Notes: a model not told the origin generated them from the letters alone. Numbered from the stretch's first letter, positions 5,645 through 36,532 are shown. The stretch is DNA of 64,000 bases from Nanohaloarchaea archaeon B1-Br10_U2g21 (GCA_001563915.1 LKMP01000002.1:32001-96000); one strand, 5' to 3'. Numbers and translations: made by a program.

Positions 5645-7093
5645 TTACTGCCATTTCAGTTTGGGATAACTATCTTCCACAGTCCTCCATACGTTTTCAA
5701 AGTCAAATCCCTCCATATTTTCTGCGGCAGCATCTCCTTTCATCTCCTCAGTAGTTAAGCCTTTAGCCGTTGGACTATCTGATCTCGTGCCATCACAATC
5801 CGGGCATAAATCCTCGTTCCAGTAGGAATATTCTGCTCCGCCTCTTCCAATCAGTGCATTTCTTTGCTCTCCCTCTGCACCATCATTAGGAGGGTTTACC
5901 GTAAATGTCCTGTTGACACTACTACCTCTTCCCTGTATACCTCCTGTTTGAACACTTGCACCATCTATTTCTCCCGTATAATAGGAGTCTACTATTGTTG
6001 CTGCCCTCCCCGCTATACCTCCTGATCGACCCCCATTAACCGTAGCTTCAGAGTAAGACTGATTTACGGTGCCGTGACGACCTACAATTCCGGCTGTTCT
6101 TCGGCCTGGACCTTCAGAGTACCCGCTTGTATGCGATTTCAGGATATGCGTTCCTGAACCTGCTCCTAACAATACGCCTACTTTTCTCGACCCTCCAACT
6201 ACTTCTCCATTTGCATAGGTCTTATAGATTAAACTATTTCTTACATCTCCTCCTAGCGCTCCAGTTCGATGATCTCCTATTATTCCAGTATTATTTAGCT
6301 TTAGATATTCTACAGTCATATCGTCGCCGTAACCTACTAACCCCACCCTATCTGTTTCTGGACGCTCTATCGCTAAACCTTCAATAACATTGCTGTTACC
6401 ATTTATAGACGCTCTGAATGGTTCTTCAGGATCTCCTAAAGGATGAAATCCACTTTCCCACGCTTCTGTCTGCTGCGCATCTATTTTTCGTTCTAAACTA
6501 TACTCTCCTTCTTTATCTTCACTCATACACTGCAATTCTGCAAGATTATTTATCTGATATACCTCCTCGTCTTCAACCCACATCTCTTCAATGATTTCAC
6601 CGCAGGCATTTCTTCTATACGGATCGTCCCATAGCTCTCCGTTTTCAGGAATTTCTAAATCCCCAGTTATAGTACCTGATTCAACTAATCCTTCTAAATT
6701 TCCTTGTGTATATTGAACTTCTAGCTCAAATTCTCCCTCTGAGTCAGAGGAAATGTTTGTTAGCCCTAAAACTTCTTCATTTCCTACCCCAACATCAGTG
6801 AAACTATTTAAGACCATTTTCTTTGAATCAGGGTTTGATATTGTTATTTTTTCAACCTCAAGATTTTCTGAACCTCCATTTCTAACCACTAACTCTAAAC
6901 TTTCATCGCCAACATCACTATCAGTTATTATTACATCTCCATCATCAAAACCAGATATTTGAACGCTAGGTCCAAAAATATCGCCTTGAACCACTGAAAA
7001 GATTGCGCCGCCGACCACAGCAACAACTAATAACATCCAGCCATAAGTCATCAAATACTCAATCGCAGACTGACCTGAGAACGTTCCTCTCAT
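5645..7093 (-). CDS. class III signal peptide (pilin-like) surface protein with GLUG-type repeat domain
   Basis: GQSAIEYLMTYGWMLLVVAVVGG N-terminus; repeated VGLVG/TGALGG/SGGIAG motifs; C-terminal DFENVW...YPKL. Confidence 0.85.
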   Translation of the reverse strand: MRGTFSGQSAIEYLMTYGWMLLVVAVVGGAIFSVVQGDIFGPSVQISGFDDGDVIITDSDVGDESLELVVRNGGSENLEVEKITISNPDSKKMVLNSFTDVGVGNEEVLGLTNISSDSEGEFELEVQYTQGNLEGLVESGTITGDLEIPENGELWDDPYRRNACGEIIEEMWVEDEEVYQINNLAELQCMSEDKEGEYSLERKIDAQQTEAWESGFHPLGDPEEPFRASINGNSNVIEGLAIERPETDRVGLVGYGDDMTVEYLKLNNTGIIGDHRTGALGGDVRNSLIYKTYANGEVVGGSRKVGVLLGAGSGTHILKSHTSGYSEGPGRRTAGIVGRHGTVNQSYSEATVNGGRSGGIAGRAATIVDSYYTGEIDGASVQTGGIQGRGSSVNRTFTVNPPNDGAEGEQRNALIGRGGAEYSYWNEDLCPDCDGTRSDSPTAKGLTTEEMKGDAAAENMEGFDFENVWRTVEDSYPKLKWQ

Positions 7094-19644: not shown

Positions 19645-20205
19645 TTACTTATAGCGACCTCTTTGTTCTACTTCCGCCAATCTCTGGATCACATCTTCCC
19701 TAAACTCAGGCCTATATCCTTCCATAAAGTTCTCCCAGGCTTCTTCAAACTTGTCTGAGTGAGAACTCTTTAAGACTTGTTTCAGAAGATGAAGGTCTAC
19801 TGCTCGGTCTTCTGTCCGTGTACTCTGGCCGGATAGTCCAAAGTCAATTAAATATATCTTATCCGAGTGCATGATATTCTTTGTAGTCATATCCCCATGC
19901 ACTATCTCTGCAGAGTGAAGCCTGCCCAGATGTTTTCCGACTTCCCCCATTTTTTCAGCTTTAAAATTTTCTGCGAGAGATTTGCCATCAATTTTTTCAA
20001 TTTCAAGCACATAGTCTGATACCTGTTCAATTTTTGGCACGCTAACATCATGTCTTAAGGCCTTTTTCATTGAGTTATACTCTGTCTGTGTTCGCTGCTT
20101 TCTAATACGCTGGTCAAGCTCTGGATGGCGGTATTTTTTCCTAGGTCTTTCTTTGACCACTTTATCTTCTAGTATTTCTATTTCGGCTTCTGCTCCTTGG
20201 ATCAT
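19645..20205 (-). CDS. bud32: KEOPS kinase Bud32
   Basis: GAEA, YRHPELD, HGDMTTKN, IDFGL, DRAVDL. Confidence 0.93.
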   Translation of the reverse strand: MIQGAEAEIEILEDKVVKERPRKKYRHPELDQRIRKQRTQTEYNSMKKALRHDVSVPKIEQVSDYVLEIEKIDGKSLAENFKAEKMGEVGKHLGRLHSAEIVHGDMTTKNIMHSDKIYLIDFGLSGQSTRTEDRAVDLHLLKQVLKSSHSDKFEEAWENFMEGYRPEFREDVIQRLAEVEQRGRYK

Positions 20206-21806
20206 AGGTTGAGATATTTGCGGAATTCTAAAAGGCTTTTCCTACGCATCTCTTCTTTCTTTACCGGATTATTTGTGAGCGCATAAAGATCATCCACCAT
20301 TTTTTCGCTTGCAGCAATATCTGGAACCATAACATGTAAAGCACCTTTTTCAAGAAGTTCTAGGCCTTCTTTTGGATCTTCTGCTCTAACTATCTTATCT
20401 TTAGGGCTTTCGATTCCAAGTATCCGGCCTGAAATTTTGAACGATGGAACTGTTGAGATGATCAAAGCTGCGTTTTCATGATTTGCTTCATCCCATGTGA
20501 TTTCATCCATTACGTCCCCATAGACTGCTTTGAAACCTTTCTGGTTTAGTTCGGAGATTTTTTCAGGGTCATTGTCGATTACTATAAACTCTGTTTCTTC
20601 TTCCAGTAATGCCTCTACTATTTTCTTTCCCTGTATATCATAGCCTACAACGATTACGTGGTCTTCAGTTTCGTAACTCGTTCTCGAACCTCTTTCAGAA
20701 CCTATTACGTTGTATATTTCTTCTTCATATTTTTTAGTGTACGAGGAAAGGACCATTGTAGCTGTAGCCGCTAAAATAATAGCCTCAAAAGTCACATCTG
20801 TTATGAATCCAAGTACAAATCCTTGAATAGTTATTACTAATGCTAATTCGCTTACCTGATCTATAGACAGTCCTGTAAGTAGTGCCGTTCTGTTGTCATA
20901 GTTAAACATTTTTAACGATAGATATGCTGTTAGAGGCCCTACAATCACAGTTATTAGTGTAAGCCCTATTGCCGATGCTAGAACTGTTTGGCTAGGAAAA
21001 CTGAGTAATGCGCCAAGTATTACAAAGAATATTGCTGAAAAGAAGTCCTTTATTGACCCCATTGTATCTAGTAGTTCAACATTGTAAGGGAACTTTGATG
21101 CAGCTATGCCTGCTGCAAACGCCCCTACCACCATAGAAGCTCCAAGGAACTCGCTTAGACCTATAAAGCCTATTAGTAGAGATAGAGAAGCCATTGTAAT
21201 AAGCTCTTGATTTCCTCCGGCTTGTTCTGCTATAAATCCAAATACATGATCCCTGAACAGTACTGCTCCCACAATTATTAGAGCCGAGTATGCTAGTGCA
21301 AGTAAAGCTGACTCTACTGTAGTTGCAAGCACTACTGCTATAAGAGCAAAAGCCACCATATCCTGAACAAAATGCAGCGATTCGACAAGGCGGCCATGTA
21401 AAAGGTTTGTATGTATCTCTCTTTCTGTTAGTTGTAGACCTACAAGACTTGAACTCAATGCAGCCGCCATTGCAAAGTAAAAGGAATTATTTGAATCAAA
21501 TCCTAGTGCTGTAGCTAGTAGGTATGCTAATCCTCCCGTAACCAGCATCTGAATTAGAGAAGTATTAATTGCTGCTGAAGCAGTTGATTTTAAATTTTTA
21601 GGATTATACTTGAGTCCAAATATGAATACTAGGAATGCAATACCTATCTGTGCAAGATTTAACAAATCAGTACTTGATATAAGCGTTCCAGCTACTATAC
21701 CAGCAATTATATATCCTGGCAGCGATGGATGGCCAAACCTATCCATTATAAGTAGCATTATCGCCGCTGCTGCAAATATTACTGTAAAGTCTGCTAATAT
21801 TTCCAT
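20202..21806 (-). CDS. Kef-type CPA2 K+/H+ antiporter with RCK-N domain
   Basis: multi-TM CPA2 motifs (QD, GAFAAG, FF..LG, QVSE) plus HVIVVGY...YGD. Confidence 0.9.
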   Translation of the reverse strand: MEILADFTVIFAAAAIMLLIMDRFGHPSLPGYIIAGIVAGTLISSTDLLNLAQIGIAFLVFIFGLKYNPKNLKSTASAAINTSLIQMLVTGGLAYLLATALGFDSNNSFYFAMAAALSSSLVGLQLTEREIHTNLLHGRLVESLHFVQDMVAFALIAVVLATTVESALLALAYSALIIVGAVLFRDHVFGFIAEQAGGNQELITMASLSLLIGFIGLSEFLGASMVVGAFAAGIAASKFPYNVELLDTMGSIKDFFSAIFFVILGALLSFPSQTVLASAIGLTLITVIVGPLTAYLSLKMFNYDNRTALLTGLSIDQVSELALVITIQGFVLGFITDVTFEAIILAATATMVLSSYTKKYEEEIYNVIGSERGSRTSYETEDHVIVVGYDIQGKKIVEALLEEETEFIVIDNDPEKISELNQKGFKAVYGDVMDEITWDEANHENAALIISTVPSFKISGRILGIESPKDKIVRAEDPKEGLELLEKGALHVMVPDIAASEKMVDDLYALTNNPVKKEEMRRKSLLEFRKYLNL

Positions 21807-23554
21807 TTTTCTGAAGTCTCCTTAACTTTTTGTTTTTCGATTTCAACCTCTTCTAAGAATATTTCTCTATCTTCTAGGTATAGCTTGAGCAGATCTCCTA
21901 GTTTTTCTCCCGCCAAGTGTTCTTTCAGTATCACATAATCTGCTCCGCTTTCGTATAGCTCTACAGCATCTTCAAATGATTTAGCTTTCAGAACGGTAAG
22001 ACATTCAAGTTCTTCCAATATCATTTTATTGAGATCTTGATCAGGCGCCATAGAGATTACTGCTTGAGCATTCTGAAGACTAGACTCTTTCCTGATTTCA
22101 TCATGTATAAGATCGCCGTACACTAATTCATGAGATGCATCCCTATTTTCAACACTGTGACCGGTTTCTTGAAGCTGTTCTACAACTGCAGGATTCTTTT
22201 CAACAATCAGAACATCCTCATAGAGTTCTTCGAGCAGAGGTACAAGTTCTCTCGTAGACTCATCATATCCTACTACTACCGCATGATTCCTATGTTTAAT
22301 GTCTCGCGTCTGTATAGGATTTTCTGGCTCAAATCTTTGTAGATAAGGCTCTACTCTCTCAAAGATTTCTCGGTTGTACATTACATAGTATGTAGAGATA
22401 GGCATAGTGATTATTGCCATCAAGCTCAGGAATCCTAGAATACCAGGCTCAACAAATCCTTGTGTAACTGCTAACGCTCCCAATACTAATGAGAACTCAC
22501 TGACTTGTAGCATTGAAATAGTACCAAGGAAAGAAGTCTCTAAATCAAAGTTTTGGCTAATGTAAAGACCGAAAACAATACAGAAATTGATTCCCAGAAG
22601 AAGTACCGATGCAATAACCGCTTCTTTCCAATATACTAATAGAGAACTCATATCGATTGTGAGGCCTATACTAGCGAAAAATATCACTATGAAAAAGTTG
22701 GTTACAGGAGCCATCCTCTCCTTTAACTCAGTACTATACGATGATTGGGCCAATGCAAGACCTGCAAGAAATGCTCCAATCTCAATTGAGACATCGTAAT
22801 AGTCTGAAACAAATATGAATATAAATGCCCATGCTAAGCCCACAGTGAGCAATGTTGTTGAGTTAGAGGCGCTTAATCGTAATAAAGTCGGCAATACATA
22901 CTTGCTTGTTAGATATGCGGCCATTCCTATCAGGAACATCATGAAAAATACTCTAGAAATTTGAAACATGATTTCATTGAATCCACTCATAGTGCCTACT
23001 GCTAAGATGGCCAAAGCCACTACAAGATAAAGATCCTGGAATATTAGTATTCCTACATCTACCCTGCCATAAAGCTCGTTTAGTTCATCCTTATCTCCTA
23101 AGACCTTCACGATAATTGGTGTCGCTCCAAAAGTAGTTGCCAAAGCAATCATCAATGACGTAAATAGGTCAAAACCAAGCAGTAAAGCGACTATCGTTGA
23201 TGCAATACCCTGTAACGTTGCCTGTCCCACTGCAATAAATCCTACAGGCTTTAAAATTTCCCTGACTTTTCCAAAACTCATTTCCATCCCTAGTAAGAAC
23301 AACAAAAATCCGAGGCCTAGTTCAGCAATTATGTCAATAAGTTGATCCTGTGACACTATAGGGCCATCAAGGAAAACAGATAAATCGAAGGGAAGCATTC
23401 CATGAGTAAGTAACGCATATCCTATGGGCCCTACAATCAGCCCTGTGATAATATACGCCACAATAGTCGGTTGTTTCGTCTTACGGGCTAGAAACCCGAG
23501 TAGCGTCGCTGCTATCAATAAAATTGCGAAGTCTAGTGTGAATGCTTCAATCAT
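21794..23554 (-). CDS. Kef-type CPA2 K+/H+ antiporter with RCK-N domain (paralog)
   Basis: FQD, GAFLAG, QVSEFS, HAVVVGY...GADYVI. Confidence 0.9.
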   Translation of the reverse strand: MIEAFTLDFAILLIAATLLGFLARKTKQPTIVAYIITGLIVGPIGYALLTHGMLPFDLSVFLDGPIVSQDQLIDIIAELGLGFLLFLLGMEMSFGKVREILKPVGFIAVGQATLQGIASTIVALLLGFDLFTSLMIALATTFGATPIIVKVLGDKDELNELYGRVDVGILIFQDLYLVVALAILAVGTMSGFNEIMFQISRVFFMMFLIGMAAYLTSKYVLPTLLRLSASNSTTLLTVGLAWAFIFIFVSDYYDVSIEIGAFLAGLALAQSSYSTELKERMAPVTNFFIVIFFASIGLTIDMSSLLVYWKEAVIASVLLLGINFCIVFGLYISQNFDLETSFLGTISMLQVSEFSLVLGALAVTQGFVEPGILGFLSLMAIITMPISTYYVMYNREIFERVEPYLQRFEPENPIQTRDIKHRNHAVVVGYDESTRELVPLLEELYEDVLIVEKNPAVVEQLQETGHSVENRDASHELVYGDLIHDEIRKESSLQNAQAVISMAPDQDLNKMILEELECLTVLKAKSFEDAVELYESGADYVILKEHLAGEKLGDLLKLYLEDREIFLEEVEIEKQKVKETSEKWKY

Positions 23555-27429: not shown

Positions 27430-28005
27430 TCAGACCTCCTCTTCTTCTGCTTCAAGTTCTTCTTTTTCTTCTTCGTATTCTTCAATCCATTCCTGTTTTC
27501 CTAATCCAGGTTGTCTCATTGTCAGGTTAATCTTATTTGAGTCTTGTTTGCCTAGACTAACAGCGATAATTCTTGTAGTCACTATATCATTTACTGTCAG
27601 GCTTTTTTCCTGCTCATCACTTGTAAGCATTAAATTTTCTTCATCCAAGTTCATGTAGTCATCCGTTACTTGTGAAATGTGGCATAGACCATCAAAAGGC
27701 CCTATCCTGATAAATGCTCCGAATTCTGTCAGATCTACTACTTCTCCATTTATTACTTCATGAAGTTCTGGTTCAAAGACAATTGCTTTGTATCTTGCTG
27801 TGTAGTGGATTCCCGCATCTTCTGGTTCAATTTCTCCGCCTTCGATTTCTTCTACATCTTCAACCGCGATAATCACACCTAGTTCTGAGTCGATTTCGCC
27901 TTCTTTTTCTGCTATAAGACCATTCTGGACGCTTTCTTCAAGATCTTCCCCAAGGTGTTGGGGAGGAACCCTTACAGAGTCCTCAATTGTAATTCGTTTG
28001 TACAT
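27430..28005 (-). CDS. rpoE1: RNA polymerase subunit E' (Rpo7)
   Basis: VRVPP, FGAFIRIGPFDGLCHISQ, LTMRQPGLGK. Confidence 0.95.
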   Translation of the reverse strand: MYKRITIEDSVRVPPQHLGEDLEESVQNGLIAEKEGEIDSELGVIIAVEDVEEIEGGEIEPEDAGIHYTARYKAIVFEPELHEVINGEVVDLTEFGAFIRIGPFDGLCHISQVTDDYMNLDEENLMLTSDEQEKSLTVNDIVTTRIIAVSLGKQDSNKINLTMRQPGLGKQEWIEEYEEEKEELEAEEEEV

Positions 28006-28067: not shown

Positions 28068-28439
28068 TCACAACTCCAGATTCTCTGCCGCCAAGTGACT
28101 TGAACCCCTAATATAAATTACAGGTCTGCCTTCATCTAAAATCTTATTTTTCAGCTCTCGATCATTCGTAGCGACTAAGAACTCATCCGAAAGATCGTAT
28201 ATAAGATCATCTACTATTCCTTCTCCTTTGGTTTCTAACACCTCTATGTCTTGACTATCCACTAATTTATGTACTAGACCCCCATAGCGTCCTGATTCTA
28301 TACTTTTTGCTTCTTCTAATACATCATCTAGTGTGTACAGCTCATTACCAGGAAATTTTTCGTCCATCTCTCGAAATATAGATACATTCATCTGGAAAGG
28401 CGCTACCAAAAAATTGGTATCAAGCAGGATTTTTCTCAT
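28068..28439 (-). CDS. PIN-domain protein (Fcf1/Utp24-like)
   Basis: LLDTNFL, VATNDRELK; upstream of rpoE1. Confidence 0.88.
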   Translation of the reverse strand: MRKILLDTNFLVAPFQMNVSIFREMDEKFPGNELYTLDDVLEEAKSIESGRYGGLVHKLVDSQDIEVLETKGEGIVDDLIYDLSDEFLVATNDRELKNKILDEGRPVIYIRGSSHLAAENLEL

Positions 28440-28500: not shown

Positions 28501-29517
28501 ATGGATTTTGACTACAAGGCCTCATGTCTTAGACGGATAGAACTAAATTCCGAATGTAAAATTGTTTCAAGCGGCCACAGACCTCAGACTGGTGATGTAG
28601 TAGCTGTAAAGATTACGGACGTTAATGATACTTACCGATCGCTTGATCTTGAGGGCGGCGAGCTCATTGAACTGAACGAAGGCGATGTAGTAGTAGGTGT
28701 TTTGGGTAATAGAGCAGGTGTAAAAGGATATGTTGGCGAAGTACCTTCCGACATTTCCGAAGGAGAAACGCTCTCTTTTCTCGGTGCTGGAGGCCTATTT
28801 GGAGAATTCAAAGGCGCTACCAAAGAGCTAGATGACCCATGTAGTGTAGAGTTCCTAGGTTACGTTGGTAAAACTGATGAAATACTTAACATGAAAGATT
28901 ATGGTATAGAGACATCAGATTCTTTGAGGGATGATGCTAGAGTATTTGCAGTGACTTCTTCTAGAATGGATGCTGGAAAAACAACTTTAACCGCTAAGTT
29001 GATAGAACAATTAAGTCAAGACTACAAGATTGGTTCTTTAAAACTTACAGGTTCTGCACGCGAAAGAGACAGGCTAAAAATGCTTGAATCTGGCTCTCAA
29101 ATATCTCTAGATTTTGTTGACGCCGGACTTCCTTCTACAGTCGATAATCCTCGCGACGTGGAAAGAGCCGCTAAAGGACTCATTAACGAGGCTTTTGATG
29201 AAGACATTGACTTTGTAGTTATAGAGTTCGGTGCAGGCCTTATCAGCAAGTACTGTGTGAAAGAAGTTTTAAGAGAGCTAGAAATTAAGAATAAAGTCTT
29301 TGGTATAGGCGCTGCTGCTCTTGATGTTGTAGGCGCATATGGTCTTGAAGACGTGTTAGACGATATTGGCTACGAGCTTGATTTTATTTCAGGACCTATA
29401 ACAGACACACATGTTGGTAAAGACACGATAGAAGACTACGTAGGTGTACCCGCATTAAATGCATTCGACAATGAAGACATGGAGCGTGCAGCAGAACTAG
29501 TTTCAGAGAGCTTCTAG
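28501..29517 (+). CDS. DUF1611-like P-loop protein
   Basis: GDVVVGVLGNR N-domain; MDAGKTT P-loop, KLTG, DFVDAGLPST, VIEFG, ISG. Confidence 0.65.
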   Translation: MDFDYKASCLRRIELNSECKIVSSGHRPQTGDVVAVKITDVNDTYRSLDLEGGELIELNEGDVVVGVLGNRAGVKGYVGEVPSDISEGETLSFLGAGGLFGEFKGATKELDDPCSVEFLGYVGKTDEILNMKDYGIETSDSLRDDARVFAVTSSRMDAGKTTLTAKLIEQLSQDYKIGSLKLTGSARERDRLKMLESGSQISLDFVDAGLPSTVDNPRDVERAAKGLINEAFDEDIDFVVIEFGAGLISKYCVKEVLRELEIKNKVFGIGAAALDVVGAYGLEDVLDDIGYELDFISGPITDTHVGKDTIEDYVGVPALNAFDNEDMERAAELVSESF

Positions 29518-30383
29518 CGTTCTGCTGTACGGGACGCTATAAAATTCATTATTTTATCCGCCATATCCAGTCCTAATACTTCCTCTACTCCTTCCACACC
29601 TGGTGAAGCATTTATCTCTCCAATATAGAATCCTCCATCTTCGGATTCAAGTATATCTATTCCCGAGATATCAAGGCCACAAAGCCTCGAAGCCTTAATC
29701 GCAGCTTCTCTCATTTCTTCCGATGGTTCTACTTTTTCTCTTTGTCCTCCTGTTGAAATATTAGATCTAAACTCCTCATCTCCTACCCTTTTGTAAGAAT
29801 AAGTTTCCTCTCCAATCACTATTATCCTGATATCTTCCCCGGGATTCTCAATGTATTCTTGCAGACAAATTTCCTGCTCAAATAGCGTTAACGTATCAGT
29901 TATAGGGCCTATATCGCTCTCAGTCGATGCCCTCATTACTCCTTTCCCCCCATAACCTGAAATTATTTTAATGACTGCAGGATACCCTATTTTCTCAGCA
30001 GCTCTTATAGTCTCATCTGTAGAGAGTGTGTAGGCCGATTTAGGCACCGGCAGATTTGCTTCATGAAGAACCTTCATCATGTGGAACTTATTAGACGCTA
30101 TAGGAAGAGAATCTGAATCCATCTGAGTGTATACTCCATTATCCTGCAGTATTTCTGAGAAATGTTCTGCGTTCATCATATCTGCTCCTAGAAGTCTGAG
30201 ATATACTGCATCGAAATCGCACAGATTTATATCCCGATACTTCAACTTTGTGCCTTCCTCAGTCGAAACCGTTCTTATGCCTTCTAGAGGCACACCTAGC
30301 ACATTTTCAAAGTATTCTTTACCAGCTTCAATAAAATGATGGTGTTGCGCAGACTTTTCACCGTAAACTACTGCGCATTTCAT
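29514..30383 (-). CDS. RimK-family ATP-grasp ligase (catalytic motifs intact)
   Basis: NK, LPVP, KIISGYGGKGV, QEYI, DIR, FRSN, GIDIL, EINASPG. Confidence 0.9.
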   Translation of the reverse strand: MKCAVVYGEKSAQHHHFIEAGKEYFENVLGVPLEGIRTVSTEEGTKLKYRDINLCDFDAVYLRLLGADMMNAEHFSEILQDNGVYTQMDSDSLPIASNKFHMMKVLHEANLPVPKSAYTLSTDETIRAAEKIGYPAVIKIISGYGGKGVMRASTESDIGPITDTLTLFEQEICLQEYIENPGEDIRIIVIGEETYSYKRVGDEEFRSNISTGGQREKVEPSEEMREAAIKASRLCGLDISGIDILESEDGGFYIGEINASPGVEGVEEVLGLDMADKIMNFIASRTAER

Positions 30384-31192
30384 TCACTATCACCCTTTAA
30401 TGTCTCCACAATTCTACCGTATACATTTTTTCCACTGTGCTTCTCAAACATTTCTAAATCAGGTCTTACATCCATATCCATTACTTTTTCTCCTTTCAAA
30501 CTTACTCTGCATATATCTGTACCTACTGCCTTAGCCGCTTTATCTACTACTTCTTTCTGAGTGTCCGAGAGACTATAGTAATTTCTTCCAGGCTCATCAC
30601 TCCATATTTCTCCTTCAAGCTTGAGCGAAATTTTCTCTCCATCGATATACAGTACATCAAAAAACTCGCCCTCAGGAATCTCCTGTAAAAGCATGAAGTC
30701 ATTCTCGGCATCAAGATCATCTAGGCCTTCTAATTCCTCAAAACTTTCTATTCTTTTAGTCTTTTCCAGCTTAAAATTCGAATACTTCTTCACAACTAAA
30801 GGCAGCTCCAAATCATTTTCCAGACCTGTTAAACCTCTTTTAGTAGCTATAGATGCTTGTTTAGGTGCTGGAATACTTTTTTCCTCCAGTACTTTTATCA
30901 TATAAGGCTTCTTCATTAGAATAAAGATAGAAGATGGATTTAGATTTACTGAAGCCTGTGTCTGAGTAAGCGTTTCAGTAAGGACTCTGATATAGTTGAA
31001 TGCCTCAGGCCTCGGATTTATGTATAGTATATGCTCAGAACCTATTTCCTCATCTCCTATGTATACTTCTGGTTTTTTCCCAGAATGAATGCTTACATCT
31101 GCAAGAGATTTTTTTTCTACTTCTTCAAAGTGTTTCTTGAAATCTTCAGTCTCCGATTCAAAGTTATTTGCTAGTATCAGTGTCTTCTCCAT
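30380..31192 (-). CDS. degenerate RimK-like ATP-grasp protein
   Basis: IPAPK, LPLVVK, LLQE retained but Gly loop and ExN motif absent; ATG 31192 after GAGGGG. Confidence 0.7.
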   Translation of the reverse strand: MEKTLILANNFESETEDFKKHFEEVEKKSLADVSIHSGKKPEVYIGDEEIGSEHILYINPRPEAFNYIRVLTETLTQTQASVNLNPSSIFILMKKPYMIKVLEEKSIPAPKQASIATKRGLTGLENDLELPLVVKKYSNFKLEKTKRIESFEELEGLDDLDAENDFMLLQEIPEGEFFDVLYIDGEKISLKLEGEIWSDEPGRNYYSLSDTQKEVVDKAAKAVGTDICRVSLKGEKVMDMDVRPDLEMFEKHSGKNVYGRIVETLKGDSE

Positions 31193-32738
31193 TTTGTTCC
31201 CCCTCATCTGTTTTTTCTGGTTTCCAGAGCCTGTTAACTTTTTCTTCCCTGTTCCATTTTTCGATGTAACTATTTACCGGTTCAGGAAGCGCGCTCTTTA
31301 GTAATCGGCCCTGCCTCATTATCTTCTTTAGCCTGAGTTCCATGTTTTTACTGAGTTCGTCATAGAAACTAGAATCAGAGTAAATCAGATTATTTTGTAT
31401 TCTCCAGTATGCTGTAGTATCTTCTGGAGCTAGTACGACATAACCTCTCTTTCTACCTTCGAACTCAGCCATGGCTTCTCGCATTTCAGAGTCATCAGCA
31501 TAGTATACACCCCCCGATACTGTATCAGCGCTAGGATCTACTACAATTAACTCATCTCCCTCTACTCCCACGCATAAGCTATAATGAGCTTTTTCTGAAC
31601 CAGGGAATAGTACTGGCTTTGCGAAGTTAGGAATTATTAATGCTCCATTGTCAAACCACGTCTTTAGTTCATCAGACAATTTCCCTATTTTATCATATTC
31701 TACATATGCTCCTCTAACATCTCCTTCAGTTAATTCCTCTACAGCATCTATTAATTCATCAGGCATTGTTCCTTTACCAACTTCACTACCAGCAAGATCT
31801 CCAATTTCTTCCTGCTTATGAGCGAATCCAAATATATTCAATGCCATTTCAGCAGAAGCAGGCCCGCAATATGAAGGATGTTGCGCTGTAAAGTACCTTT
31901 TCATATCTTCAAGCGTTTTTATATCACTTCTAGTCCTCTTAAACTTGACATTAGAGTCCATAACCTGGCTATTTGGCGCAACCATTGTGTATCCGTCATT
32001 AGTATCAATAGTAGTGCTGAAAAGAGATACGTCAATTAATTCTCCTCTTTCACCGTCCAGATAAATCTTTTCGTTGGCCTTTACAGACCTAGAGTTTTTC
32101 AAATATACACCTGCTGCAAAGTTTTTGAATAAGTCTTTGAAACCGTAAAAGGCTAGACCTGCCAATAAAAGTGTTAATCCCCAAGTGGTGGCAGTCACAA
32201 GTTCTTGAATAGTGCTCTCAGCCAAGTTAGCTTGTACTAATACAAACTGGAGCAATAAAAGGTAGAGAAACGCTTTGAAAATGGTTTCTGAAATTTTTGA
32301 TATTTCTTGAGTAAATCCTGCGCTTCTAAGATGTTTGCTAAATCCTAGAGTGCTGAAAAAGTCGGCTATAATTTTTACGAATATGTTTACCCCTATTATT
32401 CCGAGTATGGCAACTAGTATTACCGATATAATATTTGGTAAAGCCGCCACTGCCGCAACATAGAGTTCTCTACTGATTTCTGCATTAAGGTAGAAAAGAG
32501 CAAAACCTATTACTATAACATCTAGTACGTAGACTATATAGGTGACTTTCTCCCGCATAGCTTCAGTTCTTTTCTTATTAGCCTGTTCTCCCGAGTCTAC
32601 AAGCAGTCTCAAGGCTGTTTTTCTAAAACTTCTTATCAGCAAATGCCCTAAAATTAGTATAAGGGCTGTTATAATTAGCCTAGCTGATAGACTGTCTGAT
32701 ACTATAAAGTTCATCATTTGGGAGAGAATTTCGGACAT
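31164..32738 (-). CDS. MscS-family channel fused to C39/phytochelatin-synthase-like cysteine peptidase domain
   Basis: TM helices, KNFAAGVYL, MscS beta domain (GELIDVSLFSTTI...APNS); then QHPSYCGPAS...HYSL...VDP (Gln, Cys, His, Asp). Confidence 0.85.
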   Translation of the reverse strand: MSEILSQMMNFIVSDSLSARLIITALILILGHLLIRSFRKTALRLLVDSGEQANKKRTEAMREKVTYIVYVLDVIVIGFALFYLNAEISRELYVAAVAALPNIISVILVAILGIIGVNIFVKIIADFFSTLGFSKHLRSAGFTQEISKISETIFKAFLYLLLLQFVLVQANLAESTIQELVTATTWGLTLLLAGLAFYGFKDLFKNFAAGVYLKNSRSVKANEKIYLDGERGELIDVSLFSTTIDTNDGYTMVAPNSQVMDSNVKFKRTRSDIKTLEDMKRYFTAQHPSYCGPASAEMALNIFGFAHKQEEIGDLAGSEVGKGTMPDELIDAVEELTEGDVRGAYVEYDKIGKLSDELKTWFDNGALIIPNFAKPVLFPGSEKAHYSLCVGVEGDELIVVDPSADTVSGGVYYADDSEMREAMAEFEGRKRGYVVLAPEDTTAYWRIQNNLIYSDSSFYDELSKNMELRLKKIMRQGRLLKSALPEPVNSYIEKWNREEKVNRLWKPEKTDEGEQNGEDTDTSK

Positions 32739-32781
32739 CGGGTGTTTGTACACCTTCTAAAGAGTTACTAGCCTTCGGGTT

Positions 32782-33966
32782 TTATAAACCTTTGATTTCT
32801 CCATGACCGATTAAGCGCCACCTAGAGTCAATTTGACGGCTTATAGCAACTCTATCTCCAACTTCAGCACATACAGGCATTTTAAGCTCAAGCTTGACGT
32901 CTTTACCAGCTTGAGTGACTATGCCTGCCGACTTCGTGGTTCCTACATTCACCATTAAAGCCTCGTGCTCTTTAATGTTCTCAACCTTCATTTCTGATCC
33001 AGAGCCGATTAAAGAGTCCATTAACTCTACTTTCAACTCCATATTGCTCGTTATATCAGGTAGCTCACCTTTTAAACCTAGGACATTTCCTGCAAGACCA
33101 TCAGATTTTACTAGAGATGGATCTAGTACAGTTTCTATGCCTAATAGTCCTCCTGGCTGTGCCTCCTCTACTGAAGAGTCTCCCTGAATTATATTAGTGA
33201 TCTCAGTGGTAACAGTACTCCACTTGTTCCCATCTTTCCTTATACCAGGCTTAATTTCGATTTCGTCACCTTTACTGAGCTTTCCCTTAACTAAACTGCC
33301 TCCGAGTACTCCGCCGCCTAGTTCTTCAGGGCCTTGTCCAGGCTTATTAGTATCAAAAGACCTAGCAACCAGCATTTTTGGATCAGTATCTTCGTCTCTT
33401 TCAGGAGTTGGGATTTCTTCATGTATTGTTTCTAGCAGCAAGTCAATATTTATGCCGTGCTGCGCAGATATAGGAACTACAGGAGCATTTTCAGCTACAG
33501 TACCTTCTACAAATTCTTTTATCTGCTGATAATTTTTCTTAGCTTCTTCTTCATCAACTAAGTCTATTTTGTTTTGGACAATCACCACATTTTCAATCCC
33601 TGCAATATCTAAAACTGCTAAGTGTTCATGAGTTTGAGGCTGAGGACATTCCTCATTAGCCGCAACCATCAATAACGCTCCGTCCATGATTGCTGACCCT
33701 GAGAGAACATTAGCCATCAACGTTTCATGGCCTGGAGCATCTACAAGCGATACAGTTCTCTTTACTTCTCCATTCCCATCAACATTTAGGCCTTCTTCGT
33801 CTTCATAGTATGTAACATCTGCATATCCCAGCCTTATTGTTATTCCTTTTCTAAGTTCTTCACTGTGTCTGTCAGTCCATTGTCCTGAAAGAGCCTGAGT
33901 CAGAGTAGTTTTTCCGTGGTCTACATGACCCACGAGACCTATATTAACTTCCGGTACTTTGCTCAT
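32782..33966 (-). CDS. eif2g: translation initiation factor aIF2 gamma
   Basis: GHVDHGKT, GITIRLGY, DAPGHE, QNKID, WRLIG. Confidence 0.96.
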   Translation of the reverse strand: MSKVPEVNIGLVGHVDHGKTTLTQALSGQWTDRHSEELRKGITIRLGYADVTYYEDEEGLNVDGNGEVKRTVSLVDAPGHETLMANVLSGSAIMDGALLMVAANEECPQPQTHEHLAVLDIAGIENVVIVQNKIDLVDEEEAKKNYQQIKEFVEGTVAENAPVVPISAQHGINIDLLLETIHEEIPTPERDEDTDPKMLVARSFDTNKPGQGPEELGGGVLGGSLVKGKLSKGDEIEIKPGIRKDGNKWSTVTTEITNIIQGDSSVEEAQPGGLLGIETVLDPSLVKSDGLAGNVLGLKGELPDITSNMELKVELMDSLIGSGSEMKVENIKEHEALMVNVGTTKSAGIVTQAGKDVKLELKMPVCAEVGDRVAISRQIDSRWRLIGHGEIKGL

Positions 33967-34334
33967 TCTTCGTCCTCGTCACCGAGAAGTTCCTCAACAG
34001 ATTTAGAGCCTTCTTCCACAACACGAACATTAAGCTGCTGGATATCGGTACTCACAGTGTTCCCTCGCACAGATTTTCTTTTCCGTACTCCTCGTTCTTC
34101 AGGCCTAATTCCTGAACCTTCACCTATCAAGACTCTCTTCCTTTCAGAACCTTCTATACTTTTTCTCATCGGAAAGCCTGATTTATCGCTTCCACCAGTA
34201 ATTTCTAACTCATATCCTTCAAGACTTATGACATCGCCTTCAAAGATTTCTCCAATTTTTTTGCCTACAAAACCTTCCGGCTCTGCTTCAGTTTGATAGA
34301 TTTCTCCGTCTTTTGTTCCAATGTTAATCTGCAT
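33963..34334 (-). CDS. rps6e: 30S ribosomal protein S6e (eS6)
   Basis: ITGGSDKSGFPM, RKRKSVRG. Confidence 0.95.
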   Translation of the reverse strand: MQINIGTKDGEIYQTEAEPEGFVGKKIGEIFEGDVISLEGYELEITGGSDKSGFPMRKSIEGSERKRVLIGEGSGIRPEERGVRKRKSVRGNTVSTDIQQLNVRVVEEGSKSVEELLGDEDEE

Positions 34335-34447: not shown

Positions 34448-35869
34448 ATGAGAAGTCCTGTAGTCGCATCAATAATAGGGAAGTTTCTCAAAGTATTTTC
34501 TATAGTCATAGCGGCTCCGCTCCCCGTAGGTCTTTATTATGGCGAGACTTTTTTTACCTTACGAGGATTTCTGTACGCATCAGCAGCGTGCCTTATTCTA
34601 GGCGTAGCTTTGACTAAATTAGGACAATATCGAGAACCAAGCGTTTCCGAAGCTTTGACATCAACTATTATGGGATGGCTACTAGCAATCATACTGGGAG
34701 CGATCCCGTTGCTAGTTGAGATGAACTTCACAAATGCAGTGTTTGAATCGACCGCAGGACTTACAACAACAGGTATTTCGATGATTCTTGCACCAGAACA
34801 ACTACCTCATTCGCTATTATTCTGGCGATCCCTGATGCAATGGGTTGGAGGCCTTGGAGTGCTTACATTTTTCATAGCTGTTATCCGAGAATCAGGAGGT
34901 ATTTCAAGAAAGCTGTTTTCAGCGGAAACTCACAAGACTGATCCTGGCAGCATCAGACCTTCACTAAAGAAGTCTATTGTCGAGCTCTGGAAGGTCTATA
35001 TTTTTATCACAGTATTCATATCGGCAGTCTACTTTGCACTAGGGATGCCTGTTTTCGATTCCGTAGTCCATTCTTTTTCAGGCATCTCTACTGGAGGCTA
35101 CTCGACTAATGCAGACAGTTTTGCAGATTATGGTGTAGACATACAGCTCGTTACTGTTGTCTTGATGCTTTTAGGAGGTATGAACTTTGTGATTATTCAT
35201 AAATTATTGAATAGAGATCGTTCGGCATTCAGCAATTCTGAACTGAGGCTCTACTTGAAGATATTTGCGGCCTTCGCACTACTAATCACTTTAGATTTAG
35301 CACAGGATGGTTTTGCCACCCAGGATTTAGTTGACGGAGTCTTTCAATCTGCAGCTCTTATTTCGTCTACAGGTCACAGCACTATGAGTTTAATGACGCT
35401 TTCAGTAGTGGTTCAGATGCTTGTAATAGGCGTGATGTTTGTAGGAGGCTCAATAGGTTCAACAGGGGGAGGAGTAAAGATTTTCAGACTTAAAACAATG
35501 ATAGAACTTTCAAGAACGCGTTTAAGAGCCTATTCATTACCTGATACTGCCATAAATGAAGTGAAAATAGATGGAGAAATACTTGAAAACAACACAATCC
35601 GTACAGTTTCAGTACTGTTCTTCATTTGGGTAGTAATAGTATTTGCTACTGCCGCCATGTTTGTTGCAATAGAAGACGTGGAAATGTCTGAAGCGCTTTC
35701 AGGCACAGTTTCGGCATCAGGAAATATGGGTCCAACACTTATGGAGGACGAAGAAGTGGTGGAGCTCCACTACGCTACAAAGCTGATTTTAATGTTCTTA
35801 ATGTTAGCAGGCCGACTTGAGATGCTTCCTCTGCTGGCAATCTTTAATAGGAGGTTTCTCACAGGTTAA
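34448..35869 (+). CDS. trkH: TrkH K+ uptake membrane subunit
   Basis: four pore loops TTTG/STGG/SSTG/GNMG, GSTGGGVK, GRLE. Confidence 0.93.
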   Translation: MRSPVVASIIGKFLKVFSIVIAAPLPVGLYYGETFFTLRGFLYASAACLILGVALTKLGQYREPSVSEALTSTIMGWLLAIILGAIPLLVEMNFTNAVFESTAGLTTTGISMILAPEQLPHSLLFWRSLMQWVGGLGVLTFFIAVIRESGGISRKLFSAETHKTDPGSIRPSLKKSIVELWKVYIFITVFISAVYFALGMPVFDSVVHSFSGISTGGYSTNADSFADYGVDIQLVTVVLMLLGGMNFVIIHKLLNRDRSAFSNSELRLYLKIFAAFALLITLDLAQDGFATQDLVDGVFQSAALISSTGHSTMSLMTLSVVVQMLVIGVMFVGGSIGSTGGGVKIFRLKTMIELSRTRLRAYSLPDTAINEVKIDGEILENNTIRTVSVLFFIWVVIVFATAAMFVAIEDVEMSEALSGTVSASGNMGPTLMEDEEVVELHYATKLILMFLMLAGRLEMLPLLAIFNRRFLTG

Positions 35870-35872
35870 CCT

Positions 35873-36532
35873 ATGTACATAGTAATCACAGGGATAAACA
35901 TTCTTTCCCGTAGGCTCGTCAAAAGGTTGGAAGGACGTCACGATGTAGTTATAGTAGAACAGGATGAAGACAAATGTAAAAGACTTTATTCTTCCTCAGG
36001 AGCCACAGTAATCAACAAATCTCCATCAACTCTGTCAGCTCTTGAAGACGCCGGTATTACTGAAGCTGATGTGTTAATAGCAACTATGAAAGATGATAAT
36101 GAAAACATGGTAGTATGTTCTCTTGCCAAAAAATACGGCGTACCAAAAGTAATTTCCCGAATGGAAGACGATGAATACTTCGACGCATTCCAAATAATTG
36201 ATGCACAAACAATAGGACACACAGACCTACTTTTATCAGAATTTTTGTCAGCAGTAGAACATCCTTATTTGGTGAAGCTCGCAAATCTTTCAGGCGACCG
36301 AGAAATACTGAAAGCATCAGTTCGAAAAGATTCACATCTAGTTGAATCTACTGTAGACCGGGTGAAAAACGATGAAAGCTTCCCAAGCAGCTTTATGATT
36401 ACTACTGTCCTTAAACCCGATGAGACTCTAGATGCCTCAAAAGACCCTATCCTAGAGGAAGAGGACGAAATCATACTTATAGGTCCTTCTGAAGATAAAG
36501 AGATGCTCGACAAATTCTTCCAGAATCAGTAA
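35873..36532 (+). CDS. trkA: TrkA-like RCK regulatory subunit
   Basis: LEDAGITEADVLIA..DD..N; RCK-N plus RCK-C; follows trkH. Confidence 0.88.
   Translation: MYIVITGINILSRRLVKRLEGRHDVVIVEQDEDKCKRLYSSSGATVINKSPSTLSALEDAGITEADVLIATMKDDNENMVVCSLAKKYGVPKVISRMEDDEYFDAFQIIDAQTIGHTDLLLSEFLSAVEHPYLVKLANLSGDREILKASVRKDSHLVESTVDRVKNDESFPSSFMITTVLKPDETLDASKDPILEEEDEIILIGPSEDKEMLDKFFQNQ

Follow-up and report, generated by a model that had tools for sequence, protein, structure and literature searches.

In the part of PMC11957051 available to us, the RimK ligase is described as paired with a peptidase, RimB, in a writer/eraser logic, and an rloABC operon is described that encodes an ATP-grasp protein, a membrane protein whose papain-fold (transglutaminase) domain is inactive and a peptidase that cleaves poly-glutamate, with a phenotype under hypo-osmotic stress. 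In Pseudomonas aeruginosa RloABC, according to the same part of that source, RloC is the ATP-grasp protein, RloB a seven-transmembrane (7TM) protein carrying a transglutaminase domain that is inactive, and RloA a retropepsin (PMC11957051). Here we analyse a locus of Nanohaloarchaea archaeon B1-Br10_U2g21 located on a stretch of 64,000 nucleotides (GCA_001563915.1, LKMP01000002.1:32001-96000), called the window in what follows. The locus comprises a gene for an MscS-like channel fused to a papain-like peptidase domain (the fusion), a gene for a degenerate ATP-grasp protein (pseudo-RimK), a gene for an intact RimK-family ligase (RimK) and, convergent on these three, a gene for a P-loop protein. 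From sequence comparison and structure modelling, we give about an even chance to the reading that the fusion, pseudo-RimK and RimK form one conserved machine, a ligase-peptidase (writer-eraser) system docked on a channel.

The three genes were surveyed in 70 Nanohaloarchaeota genomes. The fusion, called at a threshold of E≤1.5e-73, was found in 64 of them, and RimK and pseudo-RimK in 65 each. Regions of about 11 kb around the fusion were taken from 60 genomes, and their open reading frames (ORFs) were called and clustered. Pseudo-RimK is the next gene on the same strand as the fusion in all 58 loci with a called fusion ORF, window included, and RimK comes third in 56 of the 58, the other two stopping at a contig edge after the second gene. 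The module is always located between the genes for aIF2-gamma and a PIN-domain protein. The whole module is absent from genomes G001, G006 and G054, where aIF2-gamma abuts PIN and where both RimK and pseudo-RimK are absent genome-wide. Since the three genes are jointly missing there, the module is gained and lost as a block. In the window, the fusion and pseudo-RimK genes overlap by 44 nucleotides, those of pseudo-RimK and RimK by 4 nucleotides, and the convergent stops of the RimK and P-loop genes by 4 nucleotides. The phylum-wide synteny, the presence or absence of the block, the gene overlaps and the predicted interface described below thus argue that the three core genes are one unit. An earlier interpretation, the sequence-only reading, had proposed four overlapping ORFs at this locus that act as one dedicated system, and had named a lack of co-occurrence in other genomes as a point against it. 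The ORF call recovered all four with their overlaps, and the evidence just listed argues for a dedicated system; the co-occurrence extends to the core trio (64 to 65 of 70 genomes) and not to the P-loop gene, which is found in 19 of 70.

A search of protein databases returned 141 homologs of the fusion, about 500 to 530 residues long and of the same architecture, which are labelled either 'C39 family peptidase' or 'mechanosensitive ion channel domain-containing protein'. The C-terminal half, searched against 1.84 billion representative proteins, gave 76 relatives; nearly all of these are fusions of the same length, and the architecture thus appears to be confined to Nanohaloarchaeota. Single in-frame stops were observed in some matches to the fusion (G037:C26, G026:C7, G036:C63) and to pseudo-RimK (G039, G036, G025, G049, G028, G061). 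Some of them probably come from matches that cross an overlapping gene boundary; for others, a disrupted gene copy or a mistake in the assembly may be the cause.

The N-terminal half of the fusion resembles the membrane part of MscS. Residues 207 to 269 match the Pfam family MS_channel_2nd (PF00924, 38.1 bits, cut-off 20.2), and a phmmer search of the PDB gave a YnaI/MscS chimera (5.6e-9) and Escherichia coli MscS (1e-8), covering residues 54 to 273. The last transmembrane helix is the MscS pore helix, with an N211-x-A213-A214-G215 hinge, and N211, A213, Y217 and L218 are invariant in the channel part among homologs. The AlphaFold2 (AF2) model, with a mean predicted local distance difference test (pLDDT) score of 76.7, comprises five long membrane helices, a β domain, the papain-like domain and a helical C-terminus of low confidence. 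No Pfam match to the third MscS domain was found in the fusion at E≤0.1. Because the alignments to solved MscS structures end at about MscS residue 180 and the AF2 model passes from the β domain directly into the papain-like domain, the α-β domain of MscS has been replaced, as the sequence-only reading had claimed for the cytoplasmic domain. With the α-β domain and the terminal barrel absent, the fusion is therefore best described as an MscS-like channel core, not a complete MscS. Each genome also carries other, canonical MscS paralogs. By analogy with MscS topology, the papain-like domain would be cytoplasmic.

The identity of this second domain is supported by several comparisons. Residues 291 to 407 match Peptidase_C39_2 (PF13529, 32.9 bits, cut-off 24), and in the window protein Q291, C296, H390 and D406 stand in the Gln-x4-Cys...His...Asp order of papain-like enzymes. 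Structure comparison by VIA aligned the domain with PeiR (Z 19.1, root mean square deviation (rmsd) 2.3, 148 residues aligned), with Alr0975, the primitive phytochelatin synthase (PCS) of Nostoc (Z 16.9, rmsd 2.9, 159 aligned), and with the C39 domains of ComA (Z 16.3, rmsd 2.3, 137 aligned) and PCAT1 (Z of about 16). The best Foldseek match is 2bu3, the Alr0975 glutathione acyl-enzyme (2.4e-7). The phytochelatin synthase family PF05023 had no match in the window fusion at E≤0.1, and a few homologs carry a precomputed match to it. Pfam, VIA and Foldseek thus agree with the papain-like assignment and the Gln-x4-Cys, His and Asp residues that had been proposed from the sequence, with the glutathione-cleaving Alr0975 among the nearest folds.

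The most conserved segment of the fusion is residues 447 to 485, a C-terminal helix region more conserved than either the pore or the peptidase domain. Its mean pairwise identity is 0.69 among fusions with an intact catalytic triad and 0.68 among those that have lost it (see below), and W450, R451, K469 and R480 are invariant. The helix has low confidence in the AF2 monomer. The tail that follows is variable: residues 513 to 529 have an identity of 0.26 to 0.33, and the last residue is E in 18, N in 18 and K in 5 of 58 proteins. RimK, pseudo-RimK and, as scored partner, residues 275 to 529 of the fusion were modelled together as a three-chain complex. The complex scored 0.76 (0.82, 0.76 and 0.00 in three runs), with none of 3 controls exceeding 0.00. 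Among the calibration cases, 116 of the 157 solved complexes attain this mark, as do 2 of the 215 mismatched pairs. The run agreement was at least 0% and the partner pLDDT at least 69. In the model, residues 444 to 485 of the fusion, which include the invariant K469 and R480, face residues 81 to 110 and 226 to 230 of pseudo-RimK, among them the invariant G229, and residues 89 to 109 and 230 to 236 of RimK. The RimK/pseudo-RimK pair is thus predicted, not shown, to dock on the C-terminal helix of the fusion.

RimK is an intact ligase of its family. It matches TIGR00768 with 171.9 bits (cut-off 143.4) and PF08443 at 1.5e-37, and 15 catalytic and ATP-binding positions (K139, G143, G145, G146, G148, Q175, D184, R186, R206, S207, N208, G212, D243, E256 and N258) are invariant in 56 of 56 orthologs. 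It remains below every equivalog cut-off, with 121 bits of the 331 required for the S6 ligase (PRK10446), 156 of 350 for MptN, 134 of 276 for LysX and 86 of 300 for CofF; for glutathione synthase it reaches 61 against 272, and its glutathione-synthetase matches are weak. Pseudo-RimK scores 17.7 bits in Pfam, below the cut-off of 21, and is a full-length RimK homolog, as indicated by an hhalign comparison with the RimK family alignment (99.6%, E 6.4e-24, 252 columns). Across 54 orthologs its Gly-rich loop has become acidic, D184 is replaced by K, the RSN..GG motif is deleted, D243 is replaced by L or R, and E256 by D. With an acidic ATP loop, without this motif and with other residues in place of the Mg ligands, the 275-residue protein is a pseudoenzyme and, judged from these alignments, an ancient one, no product of recent decay. 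The pairing of a degenerate ATP-grasp protein with an intact RimK-type ligase, already recognised from the window, thus extends to the orthologs of both. CDC123, described in the available part of PMC4431377 as an ATP-grasp protein that binds eIF2-gamma, was considered as a lead for pseudo-RimK and dropped: no CDC123-family match was found at E≤0.1, and the aIF2-gamma/PIN adjacency also occurs without the module.

The state of the catalytic triad was scored in 60 fusions, including two (loci L084 and L087) added via tblastn and leaving out L078, of which only the last 131 residues are available. The Gln, Cys, His and Asp are intact in 31 of the 60. In the other 29 the Cys and/or the His has been lost to assorted residues, and the Asp is kept in 59 of 60. 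The sequence-only reading had expected the triad to be conserved in homologs and had named its absence as a point against its own proposal; about half of the fusions agree with the expectation and the other half do not. The losses correspond to 2 events on the RimK tree. The papain-like domain is retained after loss, with a mean identity of 0.47 vs 0.64 in the intact proteins. With 29 of the 60 fusions in the triad-lost state, the core function does not require hydrolysis by the papain-like domain.

A variable cassette, located between RimK and PIN, accompanies the core genes in three forms. The first is the P-loop gene with or without AstE/AspA; the second, a GCS2 carboxylate-amine ligase, in some cases joined by a third ATP-grasp that is intact and of the YheCD/TTL type; the third, one to three copies of a YheCD/TTL-type ATP-grasp together with a MATCAP (DUF1704) metallocarboxypeptidase. 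By family assignment, the chemistry of the cassette (GCS2, YheCD/TTL-type ATP-grasp, MATCAP, AstE_AspA) is all putative amide chemistry. The GCS2 proteins score far below the glutamate-cysteine ligase cut-offs, and no GCS2 was found anywhere in the window genome (0.82 Mb, 92% complete). The 31 triad-intact loci carry the P-loop gene (16), GCS2 (13) or the third ATP-grasp only (1), one is truncated, and none has an in-locus MATCAP. Among 27 triad-lost loci, 16 have an in-locus MATCAP, and the P-loop gene and GCS2 are absent from all 27; two further triad-lost loci, L084 and L087, also have MATCAP in the locus, by coordinates. Both triad-lost clades carry in-locus MATCAP. This distribution suggests that a separate carboxypeptidase took over once the tethered peptidase died. 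The window genome has its own canonical MATCAP/QEGLA carboxypeptidase at another locus (L172, G000:C13:9800-22800; ORF 5866-6996 on the + strand; PF08014 at 2e-51). It directly follows the ribosomal stalk operon L1-L10-L12(P1), so that a C-terminal carboxypeptidase adjoins a protein with a conserved acidic tail, and is followed by a SPFH/Band-7 gene and the gene for alanyl-tRNA synthetase (AlaRS).

The P-loop gene, which the sequence-only reading had counted as a core member, is better described as one of these interchangeable parts: it always adjoins and converges on RimK where present, in 19 of 70 genomes, and elsewhere its place is taken by GCS2, a third ATP-grasp, MATCAP or AstE. The AF2 model of its product (pLDDT 94) comprises a β-rich N-terminal domain (residues 1 to about 125) and a SIMIBI-type P-loop domain. 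The Walker A residues G159-K160-T161 and an acidic, Walker-B-like E242 are invariant. In the Pfam search, the window protein has no match to PF07755 (DUF1611) and only weak Walker-A matches; phmmer against the PDB gave nothing meaningful, and a profile search again gave Walker-A matches only. PF07755 is matched at E≤0.01 by 17 of 42 aligned homologs, and VIA comparison returned the DUF1611 structures 2g0t (Z 17.8, rmsd 2.7, 177 aligned), 2obn (Z 16.0) and DgcN 7xrj (Z 15.3), effectively tied with dethiobiotin synthetase (Z 16.9). These structural matches mostly span residues 139 to 338 and barely cover the N-terminal 125 residues or so, where a DUF1611_N domain would be expected. The earlier label 'DUF1611-like' would thus apply to the P-loop half only. 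We also fetched 80 metagenome loci (L092-L171) with distant, high-GC relatives of the P-loop gene; gene calling recovered it in 66, and in 49 of these it lies immediately behind an M20 amidohydrolase gene. A GCS2-like gene is present in 5, and a flavin-reductase-like gene precedes M20 in 25. Given the M20 and GCS2-like neighbours, the P-loop family appears to be tied to amide or amino-acid metabolism there too. The operon of the high-GC bacteria is conserved; it runs from the flavin-reductase-like gene to the M20 peptidase gene and the P-loop gene, sometimes followed by a GCS2-like gene or an FAD oxidoreductase gene, and looks like an uncharacterised small-molecule pathway of its own.

Features of the locus and of its surroundings. 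Positions are counted from the first nucleotide of the window; residue numbers are those of the fusion read from GTG 32753.
Feature	Position	Strand	Length or residues	Basis and remarks
MscS-like channel/papain-like peptidase fusion	31164-32753	-	529 aa from GTG 32753	
Five predicted transmembrane helices and β domain	31944-32753	-	residues 1-270	YnaI-like; AF2 and Foldseek MscS matches
Papain-like domain (clan CA, C39/PCS/Pei-type)	31416-31928	-	residues 276-446	AF2 pLDDT 76-96 over 281-450
Conserved C-terminal helix	31299-31415	-	residues 447-485	predicted docking site for RimK/pseudo-RimK
W500/W510 segment and variable acidic tail (ends ...EDTDTSK)	31167-31298	-	residues 486-529	low pLDDT
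Pseudo-RimK (degenerate ATP-grasp)	30380-31207	-	275 aa	likely start is the second Met, 31192
RimK	29514-30383	-	289 aa	ORF call; intact RimK-family alpha-L-glutamate-type ligase
P-loop gene	28501-29517	+	338 aa	ORF call; convergent on RimK
PIN_9 gene, downstream flank of insertion site	28068-28439	-		Pfam PIN_9 6.2e-13
Rpo7/RpoE', beyond PIN_9 gene	27430-28005	-		Pfam SHS2_Rpb7-N and S1
aIF2-gamma, upstream flank of insertion site	32782-33966	-		ORF; order kept in related loci
S6e, upstream flank of insertion site	33963-34334	-		ORF; order kept in related loci
TrkH/TrkA (K+ uptake)	34448-36532	+		divergent from S6e operon

The likely start of the fusion is ATG 32738, which gives 524 residues and is also used in the database copy P0001. 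The gap to PIN is 61 nucleotides, and the downstream order is PIN_9 gene, Rpo7, S24e and Kae1. A TrkH gene flanks most of the related loci (an ORF cluster of 35 members), and in one family a short MscS-like gene (285 to 296 residues, for example L055:10323-11213) is found between S6e and TrkH. The L084 (G014:C6) and L087 (G016:C12) loci have about 67% GC vs about 40% in the window, a very wide span for one phylum, and gave long spurious antisense ORFs in gene calling. Elsewhere in the window, at 20202-23554 on the - strand, two adjacent large paralogous ORFs (534 and 586 residues) cluster together.

The following mechanism may account for these observations. The dead and live RimK proteins would clamp the C-terminal helix of the channel as a pair, which would place an ATP-dependent ligase on the cytoplasmic face of the channel, near the peptidase domains. 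RimK would add an amino acid, by family membership most likely L-glutamate in alpha linkage, to a carboxylate acceptor, which may be a free acidic peptide or the C-terminal tail of a protein. The tethered peptidase would remove or transfer the added residue and, where its Cys or His is lost, a cassette-encoded MATCAP or AstE/AspA hydrolase might take over. The outcome would be a writer-eraser cycle. The P-loop protein would be an accessory enzyme, specific to some lineages, that serves amide metabolism; in other lineages GCS2 takes its slot. More speculatively, the MscS-type tension sensor or valve, beside TrkH/TrkA, might couple the bound vs free glutamate or peptide pool to the osmotic state or to solute release.

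Several observations weigh against this mechanism. Glutamate as the ligated residue is a matter of family membership only, the equivalog cut-offs of S6 ligase, MptN and LysX being missed. The triad is lost in nearly half of the fusions, and the exchange of one eraser for another rests on two independent loss events, within which related genomes share their states. A canonical MATCAP is found elsewhere in 9 of the 31 triad-intact genomes, that of the window included, and a strict genome-wide complementarity between intact Cys/His and MATCAP was rejected for this reason; moreover, the triad-intact genome G007 has a MATCAP beside its P-loop gene. The complex prediction was made with unpaired alignments and gave 0.00 in one of its three runs, and a three-chain job with custom alignments is outside the calibration. 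Finally, the α-β domain and C-terminal barrel that form the cage of MscS are missing, and channel activity is putative.

A first alternative, possible although in our view unlikely, is the specific model of the sequence-only reading: the product of RimK would be a free acidic (poly)glutamyl peptide, kept as an osmolyte or as a store of K+ counter-ions, trimmed by the peptidase at the channel and released through the MscS-like pore on osmotic downshift. MscS-family channels that export glutamate are known, such as MscCG of Corynebacterium, and TrkH/TrkA adjoin the operon. The accessory families are mostly small-molecule ones (AstE/AspA, GCS2, DUF1611/DgcN, and M20 in the bacterial relatives), and the peptidase fold resembles that of the glutathione-cleaving Alr0975. 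RimK enzymes can make free poly-alpha-glutamate, according to the available part of PMC11957051. However, there is no sign that an MscS-type pore would let a polymer through, canonical MscS paralogs are available in each genome for downshock, and the peptidase is dead in the 29 triad-lost fusions. The predicted docking of the ligases on the channel protein is also not required for export.

The modification of protein tails, as in the case of E. coli RimK and S6, is rather unlikely. RimK would extend an acidic C-terminus, the papain-like domain, MATCAP or AstE would shorten it, and the fusion would be a regulated eraser or a scaffold; candidate targets are the co-operonic S6e and Rpo7, or the tail of the channel itself. 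E. coli RimK needs a Glu-run C-terminus on S6, and a C-terminal EE is found in S6e in 29 of 42 loci and in Rpo7 in 21 of 37. The Glu-run ends of S6e and Rpo7 may merely reflect halophile acidity, acidic tails being common in salt-in halophiles, and eS6 is unrelated to bacterial bS6. The module is located within the S6e-aIF2gamma-...-PIN-Rpo7-S24e operon in nearly all loci, but the S6e-aIF2gamma-PIN-Rpo7 order also exists in genomes without the module, and the neighbourhood is therefore an insertion site and not necessarily a functional link. The cassettes contain MATCAP, TTL-like ATP-grasp proteins and M14-like hydrolases, the enzyme classes that edit tubulin tails, the canonical MATCAP of the window genome directly follows the L1-L10-L12 stalk operon, and the predicted interface puts the ligase pair on the C-terminal region of the channel, whose tail ends are nevertheless variable, as the E, N and K counts above indicate.

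The channel may even be its own substrate, the RimK pair glutamylating the acidic tail of each subunit and its own peptidase, or MATCAP where this is dead, trimming it; we regard this form of the tail hypothesis as improbable. Such self-editing would leave a tunable polyanionic brush below the pore, able to bind K+ or to set gating, and a self-editing mechanosensitive channel would be an archaeal counterpart of the tubulin-tail 'code' with its ATP-grasp ligases, MATCAP and M14-like hydrolases. As substrates, a free acidic peptide and a protein tail are equally compatible with the data: the cassette's small-molecule families favour the former, and the docking on the channel, the MATCAP and TTL-like enzymes and the Glu C-termini of S6e and Rpo7 favour the latter.

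A role in thiol-peptide metabolism is very unlikely. GCS2 would make gamma-Glu-Cys, the RimK-type ATP-grasp would act like a glutathione synthetase, and the PCS-like domain would cleave or transpeptidate the product. This agrees with the Alr0975 glutathione acyl-enzyme as best Foldseek match, with the precomputed PF05023 matches of some fusion homologs, with the weak glutathione-synthetase matches of RimK, and with the restriction of GCS2 to triad-intact fusions (13 of 31 intact vs 0 of 27 lost). Yet GCS2 is absent from the window genome, the cassette GCS2 falls far under the glutamate-cysteine ligase cut-offs, RimK falls short of the glutathione synthase cut-off, PeiR and the C39 domains fit the fold equally well or better, and the nucleophile is missing in 29 of the 60 fusions.

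A ribosomal-peptide system (graspetide- or bacteriocin-like), in which the ATP-grasp modifies a precursor and the C39-type domain cuts its leader at export, as in PCAT transporters, is highly improbable. ComA and PCAT1 have C39 domains that align here at Z of about 16, and ATP-grasp ligases make graspetides, according to the available part of PMC8939145; the locus is nevertheless too compact for a precursor gene, given the gene overlaps and the short gap to PIN, the ligase is of the RimK family and not of graspetide type, and near-universal vertical conservation at a fixed site in symbiont genomes of about 1 Mb is unlike conflict loci or those for ribosomally synthesized and post-translationally modified peptides. 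That the genes are mere neighbours without shared function, to which the opposite strand and limited spread of the P-loop gene (19 of 70 genomes) would point, is close to negligible in view of the synteny in 58 of 58 loci, the block absence in 3 genomes, the gene overlaps and an interface predicted on the most conserved segment.

Nanohaloarchaeota live as obligate symbionts and their genomes measure about 1 Mb, yet 64 to 65 of the 70 surveyed keep the module at one fixed site. The module is probably important for nanohaloarchaeal biology. If the preferred reading, a ligase-peptidase system docked on a channel, is true, the fusion would be the first mechanosensitive-type channel with an enzyme domain that recruits a ligase, pseudo-RimK would be a clear case of a pseudoenzyme serving as an adaptor, and glutamate-peptide chemistry may be linked to osmotic control. 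The three proteins would offer a compact entry to what prokaryotic RimK-type ligases modify and to the link with osmotic stress. In full-text searches of the literature, we found no paper on Nanohaloarchaeota and RimK and no relevant one on MscS and phytochelatin synthase; older amidoligase genomics may cover related contexts.

The individual proteins can be compared with several known families. The fusion shares with MscS and YnaI a pore helix with an N-x-A-A-G hinge and a β domain, and has five transmembrane helices as YnaI does, whereas the cage-building α-β domain and the C-terminal barrel are swapped for the peptidase domain and the docking helix; gating and conductance are putative here. 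The peptidase domain has the papain-like fold and the Gln...Cys...His...Asp order of Alr0975, of the pseudomurein endoisopeptidase PeiR and of the C39 domains of PCAT and ComA. However, the identity to these is 17 to 21%, the window fusion reaches only the generic Peptidase_C39_2 family, and the fold does not give the substrate. The P-loop domain resembles the DUF1611 family (TM0796 2g0t, Ava_3511 2obn, DgcN 7xrj) and dethiobiotin synthetase with Z of 15 to 18, and distant homologs carry PF07755, whereas the β-rich N-terminal half is outside the matches, the window protein is below PF07755, and there is no sign of D-glutamate activity.

As a system, and by analogy, the closest characterised logic is that of RimK-RimB and of Pseudomonas rloABC, of which the module would be an archaeal, membrane-bound relative. 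In RimK-RimB too, as described in the available part of PMC11957051, a RimK-family ATP-grasp protein is encoded alongside a peptidase dedicated to undoing its action. Here, the peptidase is papain-like and fused to a membrane channel whereas RimB is retropepsin-like, the dead RimK paralog appears as an obligatory third partner, the target bS6 is absent from archaea, and the nanohaloarchaeal RimK reaches 121 of the 331 bits of the S6-ligase equivalog. A sequence relationship to RloABC was not detected, the fusion having no 7TM_transglut or Transglut_i_TM match at E≤0.1. In organisation, both systems combine an ATP-grasp protein, a polytopic membrane protein with a possibly inactive papain-fold domain and a peptidase, and share a possible hypo-osmotic link (PMC11957051, available part); the nanohaloarchaeal lineages with a dead triad and MATCAP resemble RloABC most. 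The system described here is archaeal and its membrane part MscS-like, with a papain-like domain that would be cytoplasmic by MscS topology, whereas the RloB domain and RloA are periplasmic according to the same part of that source. New among RimK-type ligase/peptidase systems are the fusion to MscS, pseudo-RimK as a putative adaptor, and a cassette whose accessory genes are interchangeable.

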